DNA from: Eukaryota sp. GEM-RC1
Taxonomy: Eukaryota
Direction of reading: 5' to 3'
Length of the DNA: 64,000 nt
NCBI GenBank assembly: GCA_040285855.1
Contig: JAUFOQ010000016.1
Coordinates: 558,001 to 622,000, forward strand
Shown here: piece after piece, positions 14,390 through 64,000 of the stretch
Numbering within the stretch: the stretch's first letter is position 1
How the letters are laid out: every line of letters begins with the position of its first letter
The notes under the pieces: model-generated
Database searches by the model: none
Told to the model about the DNA's origin: nothing
The model's input: only the letters and a program-made list of their open reading frames with translations
Translations under genes and position numbers: made by a program

Positions 14390-15100
14390 AAAAACATTAA
14401 AATAAACACAAATACTAGAATTCAATATCATTAAAGCAACAATCATTGCCATTAAAACTCACATCAGCTTTTTCTTCATAAAAAACACTGAGAGCTAATA
14501 GAGCTTTTGAAATCATGATAGGAATTGTTTTAAATATTGTAAAAACAATACGATTCAACCAAAATTTGAAATCAAATTTCTTGTTCATTCTTTTTTGACC
14601 ACTTTCTCAAAATCAGAGAGAAAACAAAGAGCATCTCTACCAAGTCGACCATAAATTGAAATTGCAAAAGGACATAATTTGTACTCAACATGTCTAATAT
14701 GTTTGAGAGCAGTCAGTGGTTCATCATATTTGTTTCTCTTGTATTGTTCTGAAGAATTCAGTGGCGAAACTTCAGTTTTAGCATCCTTGAATGCACTTTT
14801 TTTGCAAACATCCACAGTAATCACATCAACAACGGTTAGTTCATCATTAACTGATGGAACTATAACATCAGCTCTTCGTTTACCAAAAGTCTTATCAGAA
14901 TCACTATTTTTTGAATTATTGATTTCCAGTGATCTCAACAGTGGCTCAACGAAAGATTCGATTTTGTAGGACTTACACATTGCATGAATTTGATCTCTAA
15001 CAGCATCATGAATACAAGTTCTATAAGTAATGAAACGATTGCAACTCAAAAGGTGAGAAAAAGTAACTAATTTACCACATTTGCATTGAAGCGAGTTTTC
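14390..15100 (-). mobile_element. 5'-truncated non-LTR retrotransposon, C-terminal zinc finger plus restriction-like endonuclease (CRE/NeSL type)
   Basis: CKCG...HLLSC...HDAVRD...EP...RADV...VVDV...E.YKRNKY...PFAISIYGRLG. Confidence 0.85.
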
Positions 15101-15771
15101 AATCTTGTACTCTTATCTTGTTCTTGAAACCGAACACGTAACATGTATAGGTCAACATACGATCATTCTGTCTGTTTTTTGAGTTTGTTGATCACTTCAA
15201 TAACTCATTACGTGAGAGCCAAAATCAATCAAAATCAATTATTGATTGGAAGTAAAAACTTTCAGAAAAGAGATTAATGTATATGAATATGATGTAGTTA
15301 TTCTGTTTTTCTGAAACACAAAAGCATTTACTTTGGGTAGTTTTTTGTTAGTCTCTGATGGCTGAATAACAACATGAAATTGATCTTCAATTTGAGGAAA
15401 TCCGGGTTTTCACCTTGACAATCTAGTGAAATCATTTTTGTAGAATTTGATACGCTGTATTAAATCTTCATCAGAATCACCATCCTATTTACTTCCTCTT
15501 TATATTTAGAGCTGTGTACTACTCGACTGGACTCAACTTGAAATTCATTTGAGTCGACTCGACTTGACTCACGAGCGGAGTCGGTTGTCTGGTCTATATT
15601 TGTTGCATATTTTTTAATTTTAGATGTATCTGTTTTTTAGATATGACAGTTTGGGTTCAACTCGAATTGTGACAATAGACCCATCCAAGGCTTTACTAAT
15701 TACTGTGTATACATTCGGTACAAATTAGTTTATACAATAGTTCATACAAAATTCACAATACAAAGAACAAT

Positions 15772-21948: not shown

Positions 21949-22292
21949 ATAGTACGCTATAACCAATAAAGATCCCATAATAGAATAGGAAAGTCAATTG
22001 TTAGAAGTAAAACACAATGTTTACATACAGTCTACTAGTAAAGACGCAAACAGAATTAACAATACTATTCCATGACATGGTCTTGAACCCCAAAGAGTTT
22101 CTTCAAAATTCCGTCGAAATTCTGAAACACTGAGCGAAATATAGAAAAACGAGACGATCCCTCCAATAACTAATGTTGAACTTCTTGCCAAATTCACAAC
22201 ACAATTGATTAAAAGATGGCAAAAACGTCTGAGCTGCAGAATCCAAATTCGCATAAATTGAAATATCGAATGGTTGAAACCATACTTTTCAA

Positions 22293-22920
22293 TTACTGGG
22301 TTGTTGGATCAGGAATTCCTAGAACTCCTACAATTACGAATACTGCATTAATTCCTGGAATTCTCAGAGTTACGTTACTGCAGTAATTCGTACAATTAAC
22401 AGAGATTTTCTGTGAAAAGGCGAACTTTCGAATCTGATTTCTATTCACACGATTTCTGCAAAGTGACAGAACAAACCATATGCATGTGGAAATCCCTCTC
22501 AAATATGTAGCACAAGTTCAAAATTTTGGTTCAGTACTTCGACTGCAAAATGTGTTAATTTTATACCCAAATACTCAATGTTGATAACACTTTTATGTTT
22601 AACACAATATAAATTTAAATAAATGTTCTTGGAAAATGTACTTTCGATGTTGTTTCGTTCAAAAACATAAATTGATGTAAAAATTGTGAAGTGTCGGTCT
22701 CAAATGGTCTTTTGGTTCTAACCAGCGAAGACTACATACAACAAGACCGTAGGCATGACCTTGACTTGATCCACTTTGTTGAGTTTTGCACAGGTAATTG
22801 AAGATTTTTTTGTTTAAGGAATTCCTCGAATTCCAGTAATTCTGGCGTTATAAAATTGGCCTTCAGGAATTCCAGGAATTGCTACAATTACGTTTACTGG
22901 AAATTAGTACAAAGTAGTGT
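22293..22920. repeat. Degenerate transposon-like element with GGAATTCC-rich ends
   Basis: Imperfect direct repeat TCAGGAATTCC.......CTACAATTACG at about 22309 and 22863; related motifs near 63900-63950. Confidence 0.45.
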
Positions 22921-47207: not shown

Positions 47208-47306
47208 CGCATGTTTGAGACTTTTGACTCAAAACAGTTTTGACAATCTTCGTCTTACTTTTCTTTGTTACACATCTTCACACCCATTGTATGTCAATGT
47301 TCTCAT

Positions 47307-47380
47307 CTTTCATGATGTTAACTCAGTTCTGCTTCTGAAGTGACTTCGGTTGCTCAGGAAGATACTTACCGCCTGATCTT
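47307..47380 (+). ncRNA. Box C/D snoRNA (SNORD38/snR61-like guide), copy 1
   Basis: C box ATGATG (47312); guide CAGTTCTGCTT plus D' box CTGA (47335); cUUCGg hairpin; TTACCGC plus D box CTGA (47373). Confidence 0.85.
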
Positions 47381-47429
47381 TATTGTTTTTTAACTTCTTA
47401 CCCCAGTTTATGTATGTCAATGTTCTCAT

Positions 47430-47503
47430 CTTTCATGATGTTAACTCAGTTCTGCTTCTGAAGTGACTTCGGTTGCTCAGGAAGATACTTACCGCCTGAT
47501 CTT
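47430..47503 (+). ncRNA. Box C/D snoRNA, copy 2
   Basis: Identical to copy 1. Confidence 0.8.
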
Positions 47504-47552
47504 TATTGTTTTTTAACTTCTTACCCCAGTTTATGTATGTCAATGTTCTCAT

Positions 47553-47626
47553 CTTTCATGATGTTAACTCAGTTCTGCTTCTGAAGTGACTTCGGTTGCT
47601 CAGGAAGATACTTACCGCCTGATCTT
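47553..47626 (+). ncRNA. Box C/D snoRNA, copy 3
   Basis: Identical to copy 1. Confidence 0.8.
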
Positions 47627-47716
47627 TATTGTTTTTTAACTTCTTACCCCAGTTTGTAAATAAATACAGTTTTCTTTATACTTTTAAGTTGGTTTCAGAT
47701 TTGAATTAATTTTATA

Positions 47717-55398: not shown

Positions 55399-56796
55399 CT
55401 ACGAGAACATTTCTGGTAGCTTCGTTTTCCAATCATTGTAAAACTCCTTACAGTAATCAACATTTCCAAGGGAGTTTTCCAAATCAATAACAAATTTAAA
55501 AAGTACTGGATCGAATAATTTAGTTAAAATCCAATTCAAAACTTTCCTGCAGCCCTCCAAATCACTCAATCGAACATAGAACAAAGCAATAGACTTAGCT
55601 AACATTGGAACCTTTACTAATCCCAATGGAAGTTCTTCTAAAGCCCTAGAGTACACCTCCTTAGCTCCTTCTGCATCTTCAATCACGACTTCCAAGTAAG
55701 AGGCGTACATTATCCAAAGATAGACTAGTCGTTGAAAAGTAGGAGACGTGGAATCAATCTCGACTTTAATTGCCCTTTCGAACACAGAAACAACTTCATC
55801 CTTGGGTGAGCTCAATTCTTGTAAAATCTTAATCAAATCAAACCAATTATTAACATCATTTGGCTTAATCTCAGTACGATACAAACAGAAATACTTTCTA
55901 GACAGCAAAGCAACTGTCTGAATATCACTCGGATCTCCATACTTCCTCTCAATAAATAGCCACTCCTTACCTACTTTAGACTTGTCCTTCGTAGCAACAT
56001 TATCAATAGCAAACTTAAACGCACTCCTAGCTTCATCAAGAGAACCAATCTCAACATAGAGAGAAGACAACTCTAGAAAGATAGTAACATCAGCTAAGGC
56101 TTGGTCTAAGAATCCTTGGATGAAAACTTGAGCAAAGTAGATGGACTGTTTCAGGTCTTGAACTCGATGTTTGGCAAAAGACATTGCATCTCTAAATGAT
56201 TGAGCTTTAGGACGAGTGGAGATCATTTGCTCTAAGACTTTCCATACGTTGTCCACGTTATTCATTCTAAACTCAAAATCAGCAAAAGCAATGTAAGCAG
56301 AGTTAGGTGGATGCCAGGACATCCACTTGTTATAGACAGCATGTTGAGATTCATAAGGTTGATTAGATCTGCGGAGGACATCGAGATATATGATCCAGAG
56401 TTTATCTATTCTGGGAAGAGTGCAAGTAGCACGGGAGAAAACTTCAAGAGCTTCTTCAAGATTACCACCTTTTAGTTCGAGTTCAGCGTAGGCTAACCAT
56501 AGCTTTGGTTCTGTATAGAGAGTACACAGAGCTCTTTCCATGATACTACGCATACGACGGTGGTCTTGCATGGCTAATTCCCATGAAGCGTATTCAATCC
56601 AGGGTTTGGATTTGTTTGGAGATCTGCCAACATTGGCTTCGAACTCCCGACGACGTCTAACTAGGTAATCAGCAAGATCCACTTCATCGGTGATTTGTTC
56701 TTGAAGAGGACGAAAGTATATGTCAGCCTGACGTTCAAAGGCCTCTAGTAAGATTTGTTCAGCTGTGATCTGGATAGGAGCAGACTCATTGGACAT
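55399..56796 (-). CDS. CLF1: Crooked-neck/Clf1 splicing factor (HAT repeats); true 3' end probably frameshifted
   Basis: APIQITAEQILLEA, RRREFE..V, WIEYASWE...RMRSIMERAL, LPRIDKLW, WMSWHP. Confidence 0.92.
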   Translation of the reverse strand: MSNESAPIQITAEQILLEAFERQADIYFRPLQEQITDEVDLADYLVRRRREFEANVGRSPNKSKPWIEYASWELAMQDHRRMRSIMERALCTLYTEPKLWLAYAELELKGGNLEEALEVFSRATCTLPRIDKLWIIYLDVLRRSNQPYESQHAVYNKWMSWHPPNSAYIAFADFEFRMNNVDNVWKVLEQMISTRPKAQSFRDAMSFAKHRVQDLKQSIYFAQVFIQGFLDQALADVTIFLELSSLYVEIGSLDEARSAFKFAIDNVATKDKSKVGKEWLFIERKYGDPSDIQTVALLSRKYFCLYRTEIKPNDVNNWFDLIKILQELSSPKDEVVSVFERAIKVEIDSTSPTFQRLVYLWIMYASYLEVVIEDAEGAKEVYSRALEELPLGLVKVPMLAKSIALFYVRLSDLEGCRKVLNWILTKLFDPVLFKFVIDLENSLGNVDYCKEFYNDWKTKLPEMFS

Positions 56797-56935
56797 CAGC
56801 TAATAGCTTACGGATGTCAAATAATAGTGACCCGATTAGATCACTGGAGGGAGAGAATTATGTAGAAGTTCTTTTCAAAACTTCTGGTCTACCATTTCCT
56901 CTACCATGTTCATCTACAATATGAATCATGTTCAA
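56790..56935 (-). ncRNA. Candidate Fanzor omega-RNA scaffold
   Basis: Consecutive hairpins overlapping and following the Fanzor stop codon, including a 9-bp stem with a GAAA tetraloop. Confidence 0.45.
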
Positions 56936-59900
56936 CACAGCGTTCACGTTGCGGTTCCAAAGACATCCACACTTTTGCAAGTGAGTAATCCATGTCTTAA
57001 AACCGTTGGTGTTTTTGCTCTTCTGTAAGGTCTGGGATTTTGAACACGGTGTTTGTTTTCATTAATTCCATGTTCATTTTTCAGCACACACTTGTGACAT
57101 CGAGCGCTTGTTCTATATTCATCTATCAGCAGCACCCGATAATGATGCTTTTTGAACATTGCCCTGTGACCAACATTCTTTGTTGGTGCTTGATTCTTGA
57201 ACATAGTCTGCTTCCAATCTCCCATCACTATCACTGTATTTTCTGGACCTCCAAACTTCTCTTTCTCGATTCAAACCTTTCCTTGGTCATATACCTCTTT
57301 AGCTTCATTATTCTTATTTCGTCTGATTGATAGTACGATCCCATATTCAGAGAGAATTCATACTTAAAGCTTTACAATATGCCAAGAAATCATCGTGATC
57401 AAGGCCTTTACTAGAGTGTTTACTTAGTTGTTTTTCCCACTCTTCATTAGTTTTTCCTCCAATGATCCATGACTTTTTACTCTCTCTGAAGAACTTCTGC
57501 TGATCTTTGCCAGGAGTCTCTCTATTTCTTTGAGGGGCTGTCAATCTTTTAAAATGGAACTTCTTGAGCTCCTTCTTTATTCCAGGTTTCTCAGGTGGAG
57601 GATCTTTTGGGGGTTCCAAGTTGGTTGTGCGGTAACTCGCGGCTCTACCTTTGGCTTTGCGTCGTCTTTCATTGTTCAGACGTTTATGGTAGCCACTGTT
57701 ACCACTCTTTCCATTGTCATTTCGCCACTCCTCCCACTCTAACTTAGTATAAGAGGGTTCTTTGGGTTTTGAATTTTGAATTTTTGGCGGACCGTATTTT
57801 CTTCTTGCTCCCATCATCAACTGATCTCTTATCCCAGGGTCTCCACAGACGATAGAGGAACTCTTCAGTAATTCTACTGGTACATCTGTGATATACAGGT
57901 CGTTGTCTACCATATTTCTACTAGGCAGACGATTTCTTCCAATTAAATCGTTTCTTATTAAACTTAGAGAAACGCTTATTCCATTGGTGCGAATTGAATG
58001 GTTAAAGGAATAGCCCTGTTGACGGGAAAGCTTTCTTTGAGGTTCTAAAGATCCAACTCCAGTACTGATGTTGGTACTTTTCGAGATTTCCATGTAGTGT
58101 TGCTTCACTATTCGAAGGAAACCTGTGGTCATTGGGAATAAGAATCCGATAGAGAGCTCCTGTGTCAATAAAGATATGACCAGGAGATTCAGAAGTTTTC
58201 AGAGGAAAGACTTTGTAAATGGAAGGTTTAAAGCACTTCATATCTTCTGGTTTTCCATCTGCTGCATCAAAGTCATGAGATGACATTTGAGTGACTTCTG
58301 GCGTCAGCAATTCCACCCCGTGCATTAGAGACATTGAATAAAATATGAAATTTTGTGGATATTTCTTACACAGATATGATGCACTCTTTAATCCATGTGT
58401 TTCAGGAATAAATAGATGTATGTTTTCGTAGAGCATCAACAGTTTGGGGAGTAGTTCAAATTGCAATTCACGAATAAGTACCGAATGCTCTTTGAATTTT
58501 TCAAGTAGAAGATTAAATACGTTTAAGAGATCGTATTTAGGGTACTTGCTTTGACACAAGGCATTAATAACCTCTCTGAGAAAACAGTGAAATATCTCAT
58601 TTTTTTGTGTTTTTTAAATTTTCAATATTCTTTTTAATTTTTTCGCTTCCACTAAATTGGTCGAAGTAGCAATTAATGAATTTAATCACGTACGTCACCC
58701 AGTGTTCTTTAATATTCACTTCAAGATTATCAATGTATTCAGCAACACTGTACTTTGTAATTCTACCCATAGCTGGTAAGTAGAGATTTTCTGGAGTTCC
58801 AGATTCATCAGTATCCGCCATTGTAGAACGATAGTATTCTTTAAAATACTCATTTACTTTTTCCTTCGAGTACGAGACAGCAGGAGGAATCGAACTAAAT
58901 CTACCTTGCATAGAAATTACTTCAGAATTTAAATCTGATGTCTGCTCCTCTAAAACAGACAAAATATTGGTCAAAAGTTTAGTATAATCAATTTGATTTC
59001 TACCAATTTGTGATAATAGAACAGCCTCACTGAGCTCTTTCTTTGAGCCTTCAATCATTTATATTTTTGATTTTTCCATGGCAAGCAGTTCTTCCATGAC
59101 AGGCAGAATTTCTGTTAGTATTTTAGAGAATTTATCTGTTATGTGAACACTTTTGTTAGTAAATTTAATTTTTTCTGTGTCCATTGCCTCAAGAGTAAAG
59201 GGCTCATGGATCGTGACAACCACTGATACAGCTCATGATTATCTAGGGATTGCTTATACTGATTGACAGTAAACCCTTTCAGAAATTGACAACCATGTGA
59301 CATCAATTGGTCATGTATTATTACATAATGACGAATAATTTCTGAAACTTCGCCAAAATGTAATAATTTACGTAAACCTAACTTTTTAGTTTTAAAGAAA
59401 GGCAAAGCAGGATTTGGTCCTTGAAAAACTGAAAAGAGTTTCAATGTAAGAATTACAGTAGCTGACTAATTCACCTCTTCCTTCAGCTGTTTCCATCAGA
59501 GTAGAATTTGATCTGCTGAGTTTAGATTTTCCTTCAGCCAGAATACTTAAAGAAACACTATTTAGACTGGTGCCAAATTTTGAAGTTAAATTTTTCTTAG
59601 CAAAAGAACAGCAGTCTAAGGAAGTGGAATTACCAAATTTATGAGAGATGGTAGAGTTCCAAGAGGCTGAAAGAAAAGTAAGTGAAATTATATTGTCTGT
59701 CTTATCTTCGTGAGTGACGGTAGTATCAATCTTTAAAATTGAAGCTCTTTTAAGAACATATGGTAGATCATAGAAATCGGAGTAAAAGCCTGAAACAAAG
59801 TCTGGTGAAAAGAATTGAAAAAATTGAGAAAATTAGAAATCAAAAGGAACTCAGATTTAAATGAAAAAATATTAACAGCTTCAGACTCTAATGCAGAAAT

Positions 59901-60519
59901 ATCTCCAACACTAAGCAAATAATTATCTACATTAAAAATCTTTTCATTTTTAAAATAACAAAATGAAAAAACCAATCATGACGATCGGAACCACAAAACT
60001 TCCTTCGTCAACTTCATTGAGAGTTTCGATATCAACTACTAAAAGGGTGGACATTTTGGCAGTTGATTTGACTCTTAAAGATAAATTCACTAAAGGTGTT
60101 GCTTTAATTTTTTCGTCAATGTTGATACCACGAGAACGTACTTTGTCAAGAGTGTTTCCACCCTTATATTCATTTTCAAAATAGGTTTTTGGAATTTCGG
60201 ATCTACTCAAGGATACTGTATCAGAATCAGAAGTAGAAGACAAAATATCCGTCTTGGAAAACGGACACGGCGGTAATTCTAGTTCAGATGCTAGACGCTT
60301 TCTGTCAGAAATTGAATTTGATTTTGCATAAGAACTACACTGTATGGAATTTTCTGGAGTGGATCGCTTTTGTCGAGTGTTACCACAAGACACGGATCGC
60401 CGCGATATTAACTCCTCAGGAGTTCCAGATATCAAGCTGTATGCCTCTTCTCTGAAACTGCCCTGGGTTGTTAATCCTGGGTTAGGGCCGTAGTCCCCAC
60501 CCAAATCCACTGTACTCAT
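56858..60519 (-). mobile_element. Fanzor1 (eukaryotic TnpB-like) nuclease gene, multiply frameshifted, probably inactive; 5' extent inferred
   Basis: FNHSIRTNGISVS; RuvC-I CGDPG (D at 57839-57841); VMGDW; RuvC-II IDEYRTSARCHKC; HGLLTC..C; RuvC-III WNRNVNAVLNM; GRP; TAA at 56860-56858. Confidence 0.88.
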
Positions 60520-61065
60520 CAGACATGGAAGAAAAGAAATTCACAACAGTTCTATAGTAGTTCTAGTTGTGTGTAAATTGAGTGCATTGCTAAACATACT
60601 ACATGTAGTATTGGCTTTTCTTTTAAAATGCAGAGTTTATTTGCAACAACAAAAATTGACTTTATCACATATACTTCCCACACAAAAATTTCTTGTGGTC
60701 TAATTTAAGAGTCTGAAACAATGTTTGAAAATTTGAGGATCGTAATGTGGTCCTCTAATCATTTGGGGTCACATTCCGCTCTTCAAATTTTAAAACGATT
60801 GTGTCAACAGAGCAACCTTGTAGGCATATACCGAAATATAAGTACATCAATAATACGTAATCTGATTGAACTATGATTGACTGTAAAGTTCAGTCCAACT
60901 ATTTGTTCAGTAATTTTAGTGACCATGTAGACATCTCATCACAGTGAATTCCTGCATTTATTTATCGATAGTTGTGTCAGTTAATCTTAGCATCCGCTTA
61001 AAAACACTGTTGAATGACTGACTTTCTCGAAAATGGAATTCACTATCTACCACTATCACTGACTC

Positions 61066-62631
61066 ATGTATCGAGCTAAGTCAGAATCTTTTTCGCCTCA
61101 CCAAACAAGCAATAGCATCAACTCCCTTCACTCCATTCAATCCATAGATGGGAAAACATGGTTTGGTGGTATTGTTGTTCTTGTCGCTTCGGTCGGGCTG
61201 ATCCCGTTTTCTTCTGTCTCGTCTCTACTACTGTTTTCTCCCGTGATCCCAATGCCTCCCCAAACAAGCAATAGCATCAACTCCCTTCACTCCATTCAAT
61301 CCATAGATAGGAAAACATGGTTCGGAGGTGCTGTTTTTGTGGCTTCGGTTGGGCTGATCCCGTTTTCTTCTGTCTCGTCTCTACTACTGTTTTCTCCCGT
61401 GATCCCAATGCCTCCCCAAACAAGCAATAGCATCAACTCCCTTCACTCCATTCAATCCATAGATAGGAAAACATGGTTTGGAGGTGTTGTTCTTGTTGCT
61501 TCGGTTGGGCTGATCCCGTTTTCTCCTGTCTCGTCTCTACTACTGTTTTCTTCCGTGATCCCAATGCCTCAATCTCAATGGAAACGGAATCTCGCAGAAG
61601 ATGGAGATGTTGAGACTAATCCCGGACCTCGCAATTCTCATGATCGACAACGATTGTCTTCAGACGTTTTTTCAGAGAAACCAATTCGTAGAGAAACTAC
61701 AACAACTCGATTTTTGCCAGTACCCAAATCTTATCATGTACGCTTTCATAGTCGTTGTAAGATTTATCATTCTTGTTTAGCACATTTAATGAAATCATCT
61801 GGTACAATGGATAACTTAGTAATTTGTACATGTATGGAACATTTCGATCCCGCTGTTGCTGAATTTCAACCAAAAGATTTGCCTCCTCCCACAGTTTCTC
61901 CTCCTGCAAATTACATTCGTCAATCTTATCTTAATGAAATACTGAATTTTCATTACAGTAATTTTCCTGGTACATTACCGTCCATGTACAAAATTGACAA
62001 TTATATTGCAGCAAAACATTATGGTACCTTTCTACATGATACCAATCATCACTTGTATTCTATTAATGATCCAATTCTACAGTCAGTTCAAAAATACGTT
62101 TCTGAACTGGACACAATGAGAGTTCCTGTCATTGATCCTGATTTTAAAATTTGTCCAATTTTCTGTGACTTCATTTCTCCTTGCCGTTATTGTTTACTTC
62201 CTGGTCATTTCGCCAGAAACTGTACTTTACAGTTTACAGAAAAAACTAGCCTTGTTTCTATGGATCTCTCTGTTGTGTATAAAAATTTCTCACATGATGT
62301 ATTGCTCAACCCTGAAGCACTGTTGGACCTTTTATTAACTATATTGCATTTCCATTTGCACACAAACAAACATACTGACTTGTATGATTCTCAAACAAAT
62401 ACATTCACTTTGGAAATGTTCGGTCGTAATTCTGATTGTATTTCAAAAGCAACACATGAAAAGGAAGAAATCCGAAACAAAATTTCTGCAACTTATCCAC
62501 GTCTAGTTTCGGATATTAACTATGTCTCGTCTTTACTTTCAGATGACCAAGATGGAGATGACGTTGGTGATGTAGATAATTTTGGTGATTTCGTGGCGAT
62601 AGATGATGATGCATATAAGATGATCATATAA
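61066..62631 (+). CDS. Probable mobile-element polyprotein: 3 hydrophobic repeats, 2A motif, Cys/His region with CCHC knuckle; coding may continue to about 63270 across frameshifts
   Basis: WKRNLAEDGDVETNPGP (motif 61600-61629); CRYCLLPGHFARNC. Confidence 0.7.
   Translation: MYRAKSESFSPHQTSNSINSLHSIQSIDGKTWFGGIVVLVASVGLIPFSSVSSLLLFSPVIPMPPQTSNSINSLHSIQSIDRKTWFGGAVFVASVGLIPFSSVSSLLLFSPVIPMPPQTSNSINSLHSIQSIDRKTWFGGVVLVASVGLIPFSPVSSLLLFSSVIPMPQSQWKRNLAEDGDVETNPGPRNSHDRQRLSSDVFSEKPIRRETTTTRFLPVPKSYHVRFHSRCKIYHSCLAHLMKSSGTMDNLVICTCMEHFDPAVAEFQPKDLPPPTVSPPANYIRQSYLNEILNFHYSNFPGTLPSMYKIDNYIAAKHYGTFLHDTNHHLYSINDPILQSVQKYVSELDTMRVPVIDPDFKICPIFCDFISPCRYCLLPGHFARNCTLQFTEKTSLVSMDLSVVYKNFSHDVLLNPEALLDLLLTILHFHLHTNKHTDLYDSQTNTFTLEMFGRNSDCISKATHEKEEIRNKISATYPRLVSDINYVSSLLSDDQDGDDVGDVDNFGDFVAIDDDAYKMII
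61102..61570 (+). repeat. In-frame tandem repeat, 3 copies of about 156-159 bp
   Basis: Copies start at 61102, 61261 and 61417. Confidence 0.95.
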
Positions 62632-63279
62632 GCATTTTGTATTGGAGATGTCGAGATCATCATCTCCAATACAAAATGCTTATATGATCAGTTCAATGCA
62701 ATTAGGGACAATTCCTGGTCCTCTCGTCTTATATCTCGGTTCTTTTATTGTTTTAAACTTGTTCTGCACTATGACAATGGGTCAACTTTTATTGAAAGAA
62801 CCAATGAAAATGGTGAGACAGCCAAGTACACTCCTCTGGAAGACATATTCATTTACCATCATAAAAGTATCAATATTTTGATGTTCCAATTGGCGTATTG
62901 TGCCTACTATGAACATAATTCGAGACCTTCTATTAGCAAGTTTTGTATTGATGCTTTGACTTATTTGGTGTCATACAGTTTTAGTGTGTCGTCTGAATGC
63001 CACCTGCGCTACCAGAAATTAGCTAAAAGGTACATGAGCTGGCAAAATTGTATGATCCAAAAATCGACGACACTGTGGTCACATCACTTTCTCCAAAATA
63101 AAAATGATAGGGCTTTATTGCGTACCGATCAAAGTTTCCTAGATAGTGCTTTAATGTTTCGATTTATGTGGTCTTATAAAAGAGTAATTTATATTCTCAC
63201 TACGGTAACATTCGCCGAAAATAATTTCTGTAATTTTACGGTTGCCGAATTCTATGGATACCGGTATTTGTAAATAATA

Positions 63280-63620
63280 TACTACTAAACGACAATCTGG
63301 TGTCATTTAAACAACACCGATAACTATCAAATCTTTCAACAGCTTTGTGCTCATAAAAGGAACTCACAGCTAATGATGCTTTGGAGATGATTAGGGGGAA
63401 TAGTTTTTAAAACAGTAACAACGGTCCGATTCAACCATAACATATGATCAAAACGTTTGTACATTCTGTTGTTTACAATGTCTCTGAAATCGTTTCGAAA
63501 ATTCCATGCACATTTTCCTAAGCGGTCATATATTGATACATCAAAAGGGCATAATTCATATTCGACTTGTTTTAGAGCATATCTGGAAAATACACATTCA
63601 TTGTATTTTTTGTATTGTAT
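63280..63620 (-). mobile_element. 3' end fragment of an RLE-type non-LTR retrotransposon
   Basis: YALKQVEYELCPFDVSIYDRLG is homologous to ALKHIRHVEYKLCPFAISIYGRLG of the 14585-15049 ORF. Confidence 0.8.
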
Positions 63621-64000
63621 CAAATCGTTTCCTGTGTATTCTTCATAAGTTGTGCACTTTCTTGTGGTGTCAATATTGCTGTTTGTTTCAACTTACAACA
63701 TGCTACATCTATGTGAAGGAAACATTAAACGAATAAACAAATTTAATCTATTGTTGCAAATAGAGTCTAAATTAACAAATTGATCTGAATTGTAAACCTA
63801 ACATAGAAAAGAACGCAAATGTTTACCTACAAGTTTCTTTACTATCAGGTAACTCCATATCAATCCTTGATTTCTTATGTTTAGAATGTATTTTTCTTCT
63901 TTCCAGGAGTGTTTAGGAATTCCGTCTCCAGGAGTACGGAGTTTTGCATTTTCAAGAAGCGGAGAGAAATGGTGTAAAATGTTGTATCAAATAAGAAGCA

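Follow-up and report, generated by a model that had tools for sequence, protein, structure and literature searches.

The DNA analysed here (the window) comprises 64,000 nucleotides (nt) of contig JAUFOQ010000016.1 of Eukaryota sp. GEM-RC1 (GenBank assembly GCA_040285855.1, positions 558,001 to 622,000 of the forward strand), and its genes point to a eukaryote, spliceosome and proteasome genes being present. Its minus strand carries, from 60519 to 56858, a series of colinear reading-frame pieces (11 segments separated by 10 breaks) ending in a stop codon at 56858-56860. An earlier note, made from the letters of this stretch alone, had joined these open reading frame (ORF) fragments into one coding region of a Fanzor1 RNA-guided nuclease with a long N-terminal extension and had proposed that the protein be rebuilt; the 11 colinear segments bear out the joining, and reading through the breaks (nine frameshifts and one in-frame TAA) with an X at each yielded a protein of ~1217 residues. 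The C-terminal ~850 residues of the gene are assigned to Fanzor1 by sequence comparison, and ~210 residues of the N-terminal extension are, on the same kind of evidence, the 3'-5' exonuclease domain (DEDDy) of a family-B DNA polymerase (PolB). Proteins of this composition are referred to below as exonuclease-Fanzor1, related gene models are cited by P numbers, and features of the gene lie on the minus strand.

The Fanzor1 identity proposed in the earlier note was borne out by alignment and by the motif set it had listed, all of which was found on the minus strand at the positions given. A 97-residue piece containing RuvC-II and the zinc finger matches PpFz1 (E=2e-16) and SpuFz1 (E=3e-9). TNGISVS (~57988) lies ahead of CGDPG, which contains the RuvC-I catalytic Asp (57839..57841) and aligns with the DP motif of other Fanzor1 proteins, and the rearranged RuvC-II Glu (57118..57120, motif IDEYRTSARCHKC), placed by alignment with PpFz1 and SpuFz1, adjoins a C4 zinc finger (TNB, 56963..57099, by sequence and alignment) that is broken at ~56975 and unbroken there in P0001 and P0017; GDW, HGLLTC..C, WNRNVNAVLN and GRP are also present. 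The WED/REC region (58010..59399) contains breaks at ~59208, 59059-59061 (the in-frame TAA), ~58604 and ~58026. Its start at FFKTKK (59399), as the earlier note had placed it, was confirmed, the matching stretch of P0167 aligning to the first residues of SpuFz1. P0010, which is 90% identical to the window copy over 630 aligned residues, matches GtFz1 and SpuFz1 colinearly. The C-terminal motif of Fanzor1 is described as D-X(125-275)-[TS][TS]-XX-C4 zinc finger-X(5-50)-RD in the available text of Bao and Jurka (2013), and every element of it is found in the window copy at the correct spacing, with N instead of D as the final residue.

This last residue, the RuvC-III Asn replacing Asp (56948..56950, identified from the sequence WNRNVNAVLN), had been overlooked in the earlier note. 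Among 136 proteins with a RuvC-II match the residue at this position is Asp in 110, Asn in nine and Glu in one (16 unscored), and the exonuclease-Fanzor1 family makes up four of the nine proteins bearing Asn; Asn is also found in P0001 and P0017, both from a metamonad assembly, and in P0108, P0162, P0166 and P0167. According to the available text of Xu et al. (2024, PMC11423790), GtFz1 cuts with Asn at RuvC-III and the substitution D606N increased the activity of SpuFz1. As the relatives share the Asn and GtFz1 cuts with it, it is regarded as a trait of the family and not as decay, and a nuclease killed by this residue was rejected, the D-E-N triad being active in GtFz1. Directly after RuvC-I lies a basic, Pro-rich insertion of ~70-80 residues (57560..57811, with approximate ends), which the earlier note had pointed out and which is supported by the RuvC spacing (241 residues between RuvC-I and RuvC-II vs 173 as the median of the 47 long proteins that were scored), by composition (29% K+R and 11% P in a 113-residue stretch) and by its presence in P0010; it is absent from P0167, where the spacing is ~185.

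The PolB exonuclease domain (PF03104) was mapped to 59433..60054, with breaks at ~59971, ~59812 and ~59458. Against Pfam DNA_pol_B_exo1 (PF03104), whose cut-off is 23 bits, the segment 59832-59395 reaches 29.6 bits, and the catalytic motifs were placed at 60033/60027 (ExoI D-x-E), 59769 (ExoII Asp) and 59460 (ExoIII Tyr), so that D, E, D and Y are retained and the ExoIII Asp is missing. Polymerase palm, fingers and thumb were not found in Pfam scans of the window and of the P0108 cluster proteins described below. The earlier note had assigned an extension of about 340 residues to the same gene and had called it unexplained; the first part of this claim stands and the second does not, ~210 of these residues being the exonuclease domain that it had overlooked. 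The note had also suggested that a 46-nt intron at 59474-59429 restores the frame. The GT..AG stretch is indeed present, but 59429..59474 codes for the ExoIII helix, from which ~11 nt including the ExoIII Asp codon have been lost, the size of this deletion being deduced from protein comparison. The alignment of the window to yeast Pol delta extends through the proposed intron into the ExoIII helix, and P0007 and P0016 run in frame across it, keep the ExoIII Asp and have more residues there than the window. A spliceosomal intron at 59474-59429 was therefore rejected as unlikely, since the stretch encodes a helix found in the paralogue proteins and splicing cannot account for the extra residues of paralogues that are longer at this site. 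P0007 is 85% identical to the window copy and itself matches yeast Pol delta with E=8e-10.

Relatives were identified by searching 1.84 billion representative proteins with one reading frame of the locus, which gave 625 matches at E<=0.001, the top 150 being listed. One assembly has at least five related gene models (P0007, P0010, P0015 and P0016, plus the partial P0031/P0038), spread over contigs of three other sizes, and a second metamonad species carries a cluster of four, namely P0108 (1281 residues), P0165, P0166 and P0167. P0108, P0166 and P0167 are complete exonuclease-Fanzor1 proteins and P0165 ends within REC; all four score 50-53 bits on PF03104. P0167 has the complete set of exonuclease residues (ExoI Asp and Glu, ExoII Asn and Asp, ExoIII Tyr and Asp), which are also visible in P0108, P0165 and P0166, and the intact copies of the cluster hold the D-E-N RuvC triad. 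The cluster members are 93-99% alike, which suggests recent copying, and identity by part is 93-99% for the exonuclease domain vs 93-95% for the nuclease. The window copy is only about 25-28% identical to this intact second-species lineage.

That both domains belong to one protein is indicated by P0007 and P0016, in which a single frame runs from the exonuclease domain into the FFKTKK core, and these frames together with the intact P0108, P0166 and P0167 support the view of the earlier note that the region upstream is part of this gene. Across the junction P0016 and P0167 align as one block of 144 columns with 3 gaps (E=6e-16), and the distance from the ExoIII Tyr to the start of the Fanzor core is 25 vs 26 residues in the two lineages; P0167 matches SpuFz1 with E=4e-31. 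A profile made from 83 viral PolB exonucleases, with hits of at least 560 residues judged and shorter ones treated as fragments, detects the domain in the exonuclease-Fanzor1 proteins and in the read-through of the window copy and gives no hit in the remaining 52/53 long Fanzor hits (at least 560 residues, among the matches listed). P0162 is a 603-residue Fanzor1 fragment, 54-55% identical to P0167 and with the RuvC-III Asn, whose missing N-terminus makes a third fusion lineage possible. The P0166 model joins a DEAH-type helicase to its intact exonuclease-Fanzor1; the element may have landed in a host gene, or the model may be mis-joined. A word-index search with the RuvC-I fragment gave no match among 1097 candidates, no close relatives of the locus DNA were found in the scanned viral or metagenome contigs, and P0007 had no match in the phage collection. 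Three distant giant-virus Fanzor1 loci were found, with no fusion among their ORF lists, and the clusters returned by an atlas comparison were all unnamed or DUF8286 (0.92-0.93).

Structure models were computed for the intact relative P0167 and not for the window copy. The earlier note had recommended a comparison with Fanzor and TnpB structures, and in such a comparison the P0167 model, which is confident across the Fanzor part, was best matched to Fanzor1 (E 1e-27 to 5e-17, with a TM score of 0.80-0.83 by target length for SpuFz1), whereas Cas12, TnpB and Fanzor2 gave E values of 4e-4 or worse. In the full-length fold the exonuclease part was left unresolved by a shallow alignment, and the domain was therefore refolded alone from a 47-row alignment, yielding a model with pLDDT 80 and pTM 0.83. 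Foldseek ranked Pol delta first for this model (E=1e-9), and PolB chains superpose with Z scores of 14.6-17.9 (root mean square deviation 2.7-4.0, 177-205 aligned residues) vs 11.6 or less for DnaQ-type and RNA exonucleases (11.3 for Cas2-DEDDh). The predicted fold leans on PolB homology, because the alignment included viral PolB rows. According to this model, ExoI is followed in the intact copies by additional helices relative to PolB exonucleases.

At each of the 10 breaks of the window copy, one or more related gene models continue unbroken: P0007 covers three, P0016 the ExoIII break and ~59208, P0015 the stop, P0010 four, and P0001 and P0017 the last. These gene models have faults of their own, P0010 lacking RuvC-I and ending early. 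Two of the breaks are deletions of ~11 and ~16 nt, only two lie within runs of at least six bases, and host ORFs of 815 and 1116 residues in the window are intact. Sizeable deletions, few homopolymer breaks and unbroken host ORFs favour real decay, and the window copy, to judge from the sequence, is probably dead, though the family has intact members.

With regard to the origin of the domain, the exonuclease profile scores Pol delta at 48.8 bits vs 39.4 for the top-scoring one among 87 viral PolB segments, so that the host Pol delta gene, which would have donated the exonuclease domain, is favoured but not shown; the structural Z scores for the P0167 domain tie Pol alpha, epsilon, delta, viral and archaeal PolB. 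Because the junction is shared, one fusion event is the simplest reading. Two quick trees group the fused forms on a single branch (SH-aLRT 93 and 92), as does a quick tree of the exonuclease that contained no cellular polymerases (SH-aLRT 98).

Behind the stop codon, a candidate omega-RNA scaffold of three hairpins (56885-56864, 56845-56826 and 56824-56786) was located at 56786..56885 on the minus strand on the basis of folding z scores and position. The stretch folds with z of -2.65 to -3.05 (sliding windows -4.58 and -3.44), and six of 120 random windows reached -3 or below. Fanzor1 omega-RNAs are given as 75-150 nt long and 3' of the gene in the available texts of PMC11423790 and PMC10432273; the hairpins agree with these in location and size and by analogy are plausibly the omega-RNA, with the guide following. 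No Rfam family was found for them, the only hits being sub-threshold, of miRNA type and on an unrelated hairpin. The minus-strand gene that follows (55399..56796) encodes a Clf1/crooked-neck-like HAT-repeat host protein (Pfam HAT_Syf1_CNRKL1). Its first ATG (56796) lies inside the 3' arm of the last hairpin (56786-56824), 62 nt past the Fanzor stop. The element may have been inserted at the 5' end of the Clf1-like gene, in which case the guide would match host coding sequence. That neither terminal inverted repeats nor a transposase are visible, as the earlier note had remarked, holds after scans for inverted repeats and of neighbouring ORFs: there is no inverted repeat of at least 10 nt between 60300-61200 and 56760-56900, no direct repeat longer than 8 nt between the flanks, no transposase among the neighbouring ORFs of the window and no tRNA near the locus.

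PolB exonucleases digest DNA from 3' ends that are single-stranded or frayed. Fanzor1, as set out in the available text of PMC13565253, is guided by an omega-RNA and makes a double-stranded cut beside a target-adjacent motif at a site set by the omega-RNA 3' end, and OMEGA nucleases are thought to restore the transposon by cutting the empty site. The locus is read as a broken copy of a multi-copy exonuclease-Fanzor1 gene whose intact protein would cut at the guided site and then likely trim the 3' ends, a reading that is held to be moderately probable on the strength of the alignments and the models. The downstream hairpins would serve as the omega-RNA, and the exonuclease, tethered at the WED end, would reach the 3' ends set free within the R-loop and trim them in cis; the shortened ends would block simple re-ligation and leave repair to deletion or to copying from the occupied allele. 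That a host polymerase proofreading domain chews back Fanzor1's own guided cuts, so that programmable deletions or an irreversible break would come from one polypeptide active in at least one metamonad genome, is put forward more tentatively, with slightly more doubt than belief.

Several other explanations were weighed. The exonuclease could set the guide length by trimming the omega-RNA 3' end, given that a run-on transcript supplies the guide as its 3' end (available text of PMC10432273) and that the DEDD fold includes RNases; this is thought rather improbable, since DNA polymerase proofreading domains match far better (Z 14.6-17.9 vs 11 or less for RNases) and other Fanzor1 proteins manage without the domain. 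An activity on behalf of the carrier element, in which element ends or circular intermediates would be trimmed during transposition as by Cas2-DEDDh, has this protein as a precedent (Z 11.3) and would fit both the conserved catalytic residues and the lack of a transposase in the locus, but it is judged unlikely, no integrase or ends having been found as partners and the domain being joined to the Fanzor WED start at fixed spacing. Transposons pick up pieces of host genes, and there is a similarly small chance that the domain was captured as a passenger or serves as a module that binds DNA ends without catalysis. Such a role would suit the altered ExoII Asn of the window lineage, as well as the benefit of added DNA-binding domains and the harm of added exonucleases reported for Fanzors; against it stand the four acidic residues and the Tyr retained through ~75% sequence divergence and an exonuclease that is conserved like the nuclease among the intact copies. 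That there is no true fusion, the Fanzor lying in or beside a polymerase relic or two genes being joined by an intron or a gene-model error, could be argued from the frameshift at the junction of the window copy and from the neighbour joined in the P0166 model; it is highly improbable, as the in-frame junction recurs in two paralogues and in all four members of the second-species cluster, and in none of these proteins does a polymerase palm follow.

Trimming of the guided cut is preferred to these alternatives, and a number of points weigh against it. Homing by single-strand invasion requires 3' tails, which a 3'-5' exonuclease takes away, so that what the element would gain is not evident. 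Engineered exonuclease fusions reduced editing by SpuFz1 (T5) and by MmeFz2 (TREX1, TREX2 and T5), as reported in the available texts of PMC13434818 and PMC12923547. The window lineage carries Tyr where the ExoII Asn is expected, and the relatives are gene models from long-read assemblies. Single-base frameshifts occur in two housekeeping genes of the window (the proteasome ATPase at ~24120 and the Clf1-like gene at ~55400), and some of the 10 breaks may therefore be assembly indel errors. A careful tree unites the fused forms in only 41% of bootstraps, with a long branch intruding, and the approximately unbiased (AU) test does not reject one clade of fused forms (p=0.48), which leaves a single origin unproved by trees; taken by itself, the P0007 exonuclease reaches 27-28 bits with the intact copies and 32 with one viral PolB.

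RNA-guided nucleases have reportedly been joined to exonucleases by engineering (TREX2-Cas9 and the T5-Cas12f exoCasMINI), and in the Cas2-DEDDh trimmer-integrase a DEDD 3'-5' exonuclease is said to be linked naturally to a CRISPR-related protein. With the engineered fusions of Cas9, Cas12f and Fanzors, exonuclease-Fanzor1 shares the tethering of an RNA-guided nuclease to an exonuclease, and it differs from them in being natural and in the polymerase derivation of the domain. Cas2-DEDDh (PDB 8FYC) is alike in naturally joining a DEDD 3'-5' exonuclease to a DNA-processing protein, but the partner there is an integrase subunit and not a guided effector, and the exonuclease is of the DnaQ-type DEDDh and not the PolB DEDDy kind. 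The WED-REC-RuvC-TNB order, the rearranged RuvC-II Glu and the C4 zinc finger are those of SpuFz1 (PDB 8GKH, 9CEU-9CEZ), PpFz1 (9CF0) and GtFz1 (9CER), as are, for Fanzor1 generally, the predicted fold (in the intact relative) and hairpins past the stop codon, and the RuvC-III Asn is as in GtFz1. Unlike known Fanzor1 proteins of 600-700 residues, the present ones have ~1100-1280 residues and an N-terminal PolB exonuclease, and no terminal inverted repeats were found; the Pro-rich insertion of the window lineage directly follows RuvC-I, whereas the FRI domain of PpFz1 sits elsewhere. The exonuclease resembles PolB proofreading exonucleases, best that of Pol delta (PDB 3IAY, 6P1H, 6S1M), in ExoI D-x-E, ExoII Asp, ExoIII Y-x3-D and fold; unlike PolB, the proteins lack palm, fingers and thumb, and the polymerase-like part ends just past the ExoIII helix, where the nuclease is fused.

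No natural Fanzor-exonuclease fusion was found in the literature searched, although supplementary catalogues, which lay outside the search, may list these proteins. The word 'exonuclease' is absent from the main texts, as available, of PMC10711439, PMC10530073, PMC3627910, PMC10432273, PMC11423790 and PMC13565253, and 'Fanzor' from the available text of the paper on the relatives' assemblies (PMC11316075). Exonuclease-Fanzor1 is a real and apparently undescribed variant of Fanzor1. A fusion kept by selection in lineages that are ~25% identical would show how cutting and trimming can be coupled, and it makes testable what selfish RNA-guided nucleases gain by steering the repair of their own cut; it might also yield a compact deletion tool. 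Three intact copies in the public assembly of a culturable free-living protist make direct tests possible.

Upstream of the exonuclease domain, the coding region contains a Ser-rich, low-complexity stretch (60055..60357, minus strand) with no Pfam family; it resembles the N-termini of the intact relatives only at chance level (E>=0.3). A structured repeat of ~155 nt (60358..60511, minus strand), recognised by its fold and by matches at two loci, underlies the ORF's first ~55 codons: it folds as a closed multi-stem structure (z=-3.99, with one of 200 shuffles equally good), and the codons show 75-76% amino acid identity to two loci on another contig, match and structure ending together. These codons may not be part of the original gene, and 60358..60511 may mark the element's left end or be a small repeat in its own right. 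A 2A peptide at the ORF start was rejected as a degenerate look-alike. In P0038 tandem repeats come first, then a repeat in common with 60358-60511, then a clear 2A-like motif.

Further upstream, an imperfect hairpin (60714..60806, unstranded) has 27-nt arms that are 85% complementary (z=-3.71), and a plus-strand ORF of 521 residues (61066-62631) contains a tandem repeat of 156 nt in three copies, together with a CCHC-like knuckle and, at ~61606, a 2A-like motif for ribosomal skipping. This ORF, in whose cluster no named relative was found, is possibly the front end of a retroelement family; a perfect 30-nt inverted repeat with a 10-nt loop (62621-62690, z=-13) spans its stop, and another 2A-like motif lies at ~12813 on the plus strand. 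Decayed repeat copies without a Pfam hit occur at 2875-3092, 10870-12020, 14401-15112, 22145-22294 and 63275-63692 and apparently encode the restriction-enzyme-like nuclease tail of non-LTR (long terminal repeat) retrotransposons; in P0001 a Fanzor end is joined to the same nuclease-like domain. The proteasome ATPase gene likely also contains a 34-nt GT-AG intron. Three identical 123-nt tandem repeats lie between two ORFs at 47288-47655, and a minus-strand Gag-like ORF with a zinc knuckle (8380-9066) is probably the remnant of an LTR retroelement.

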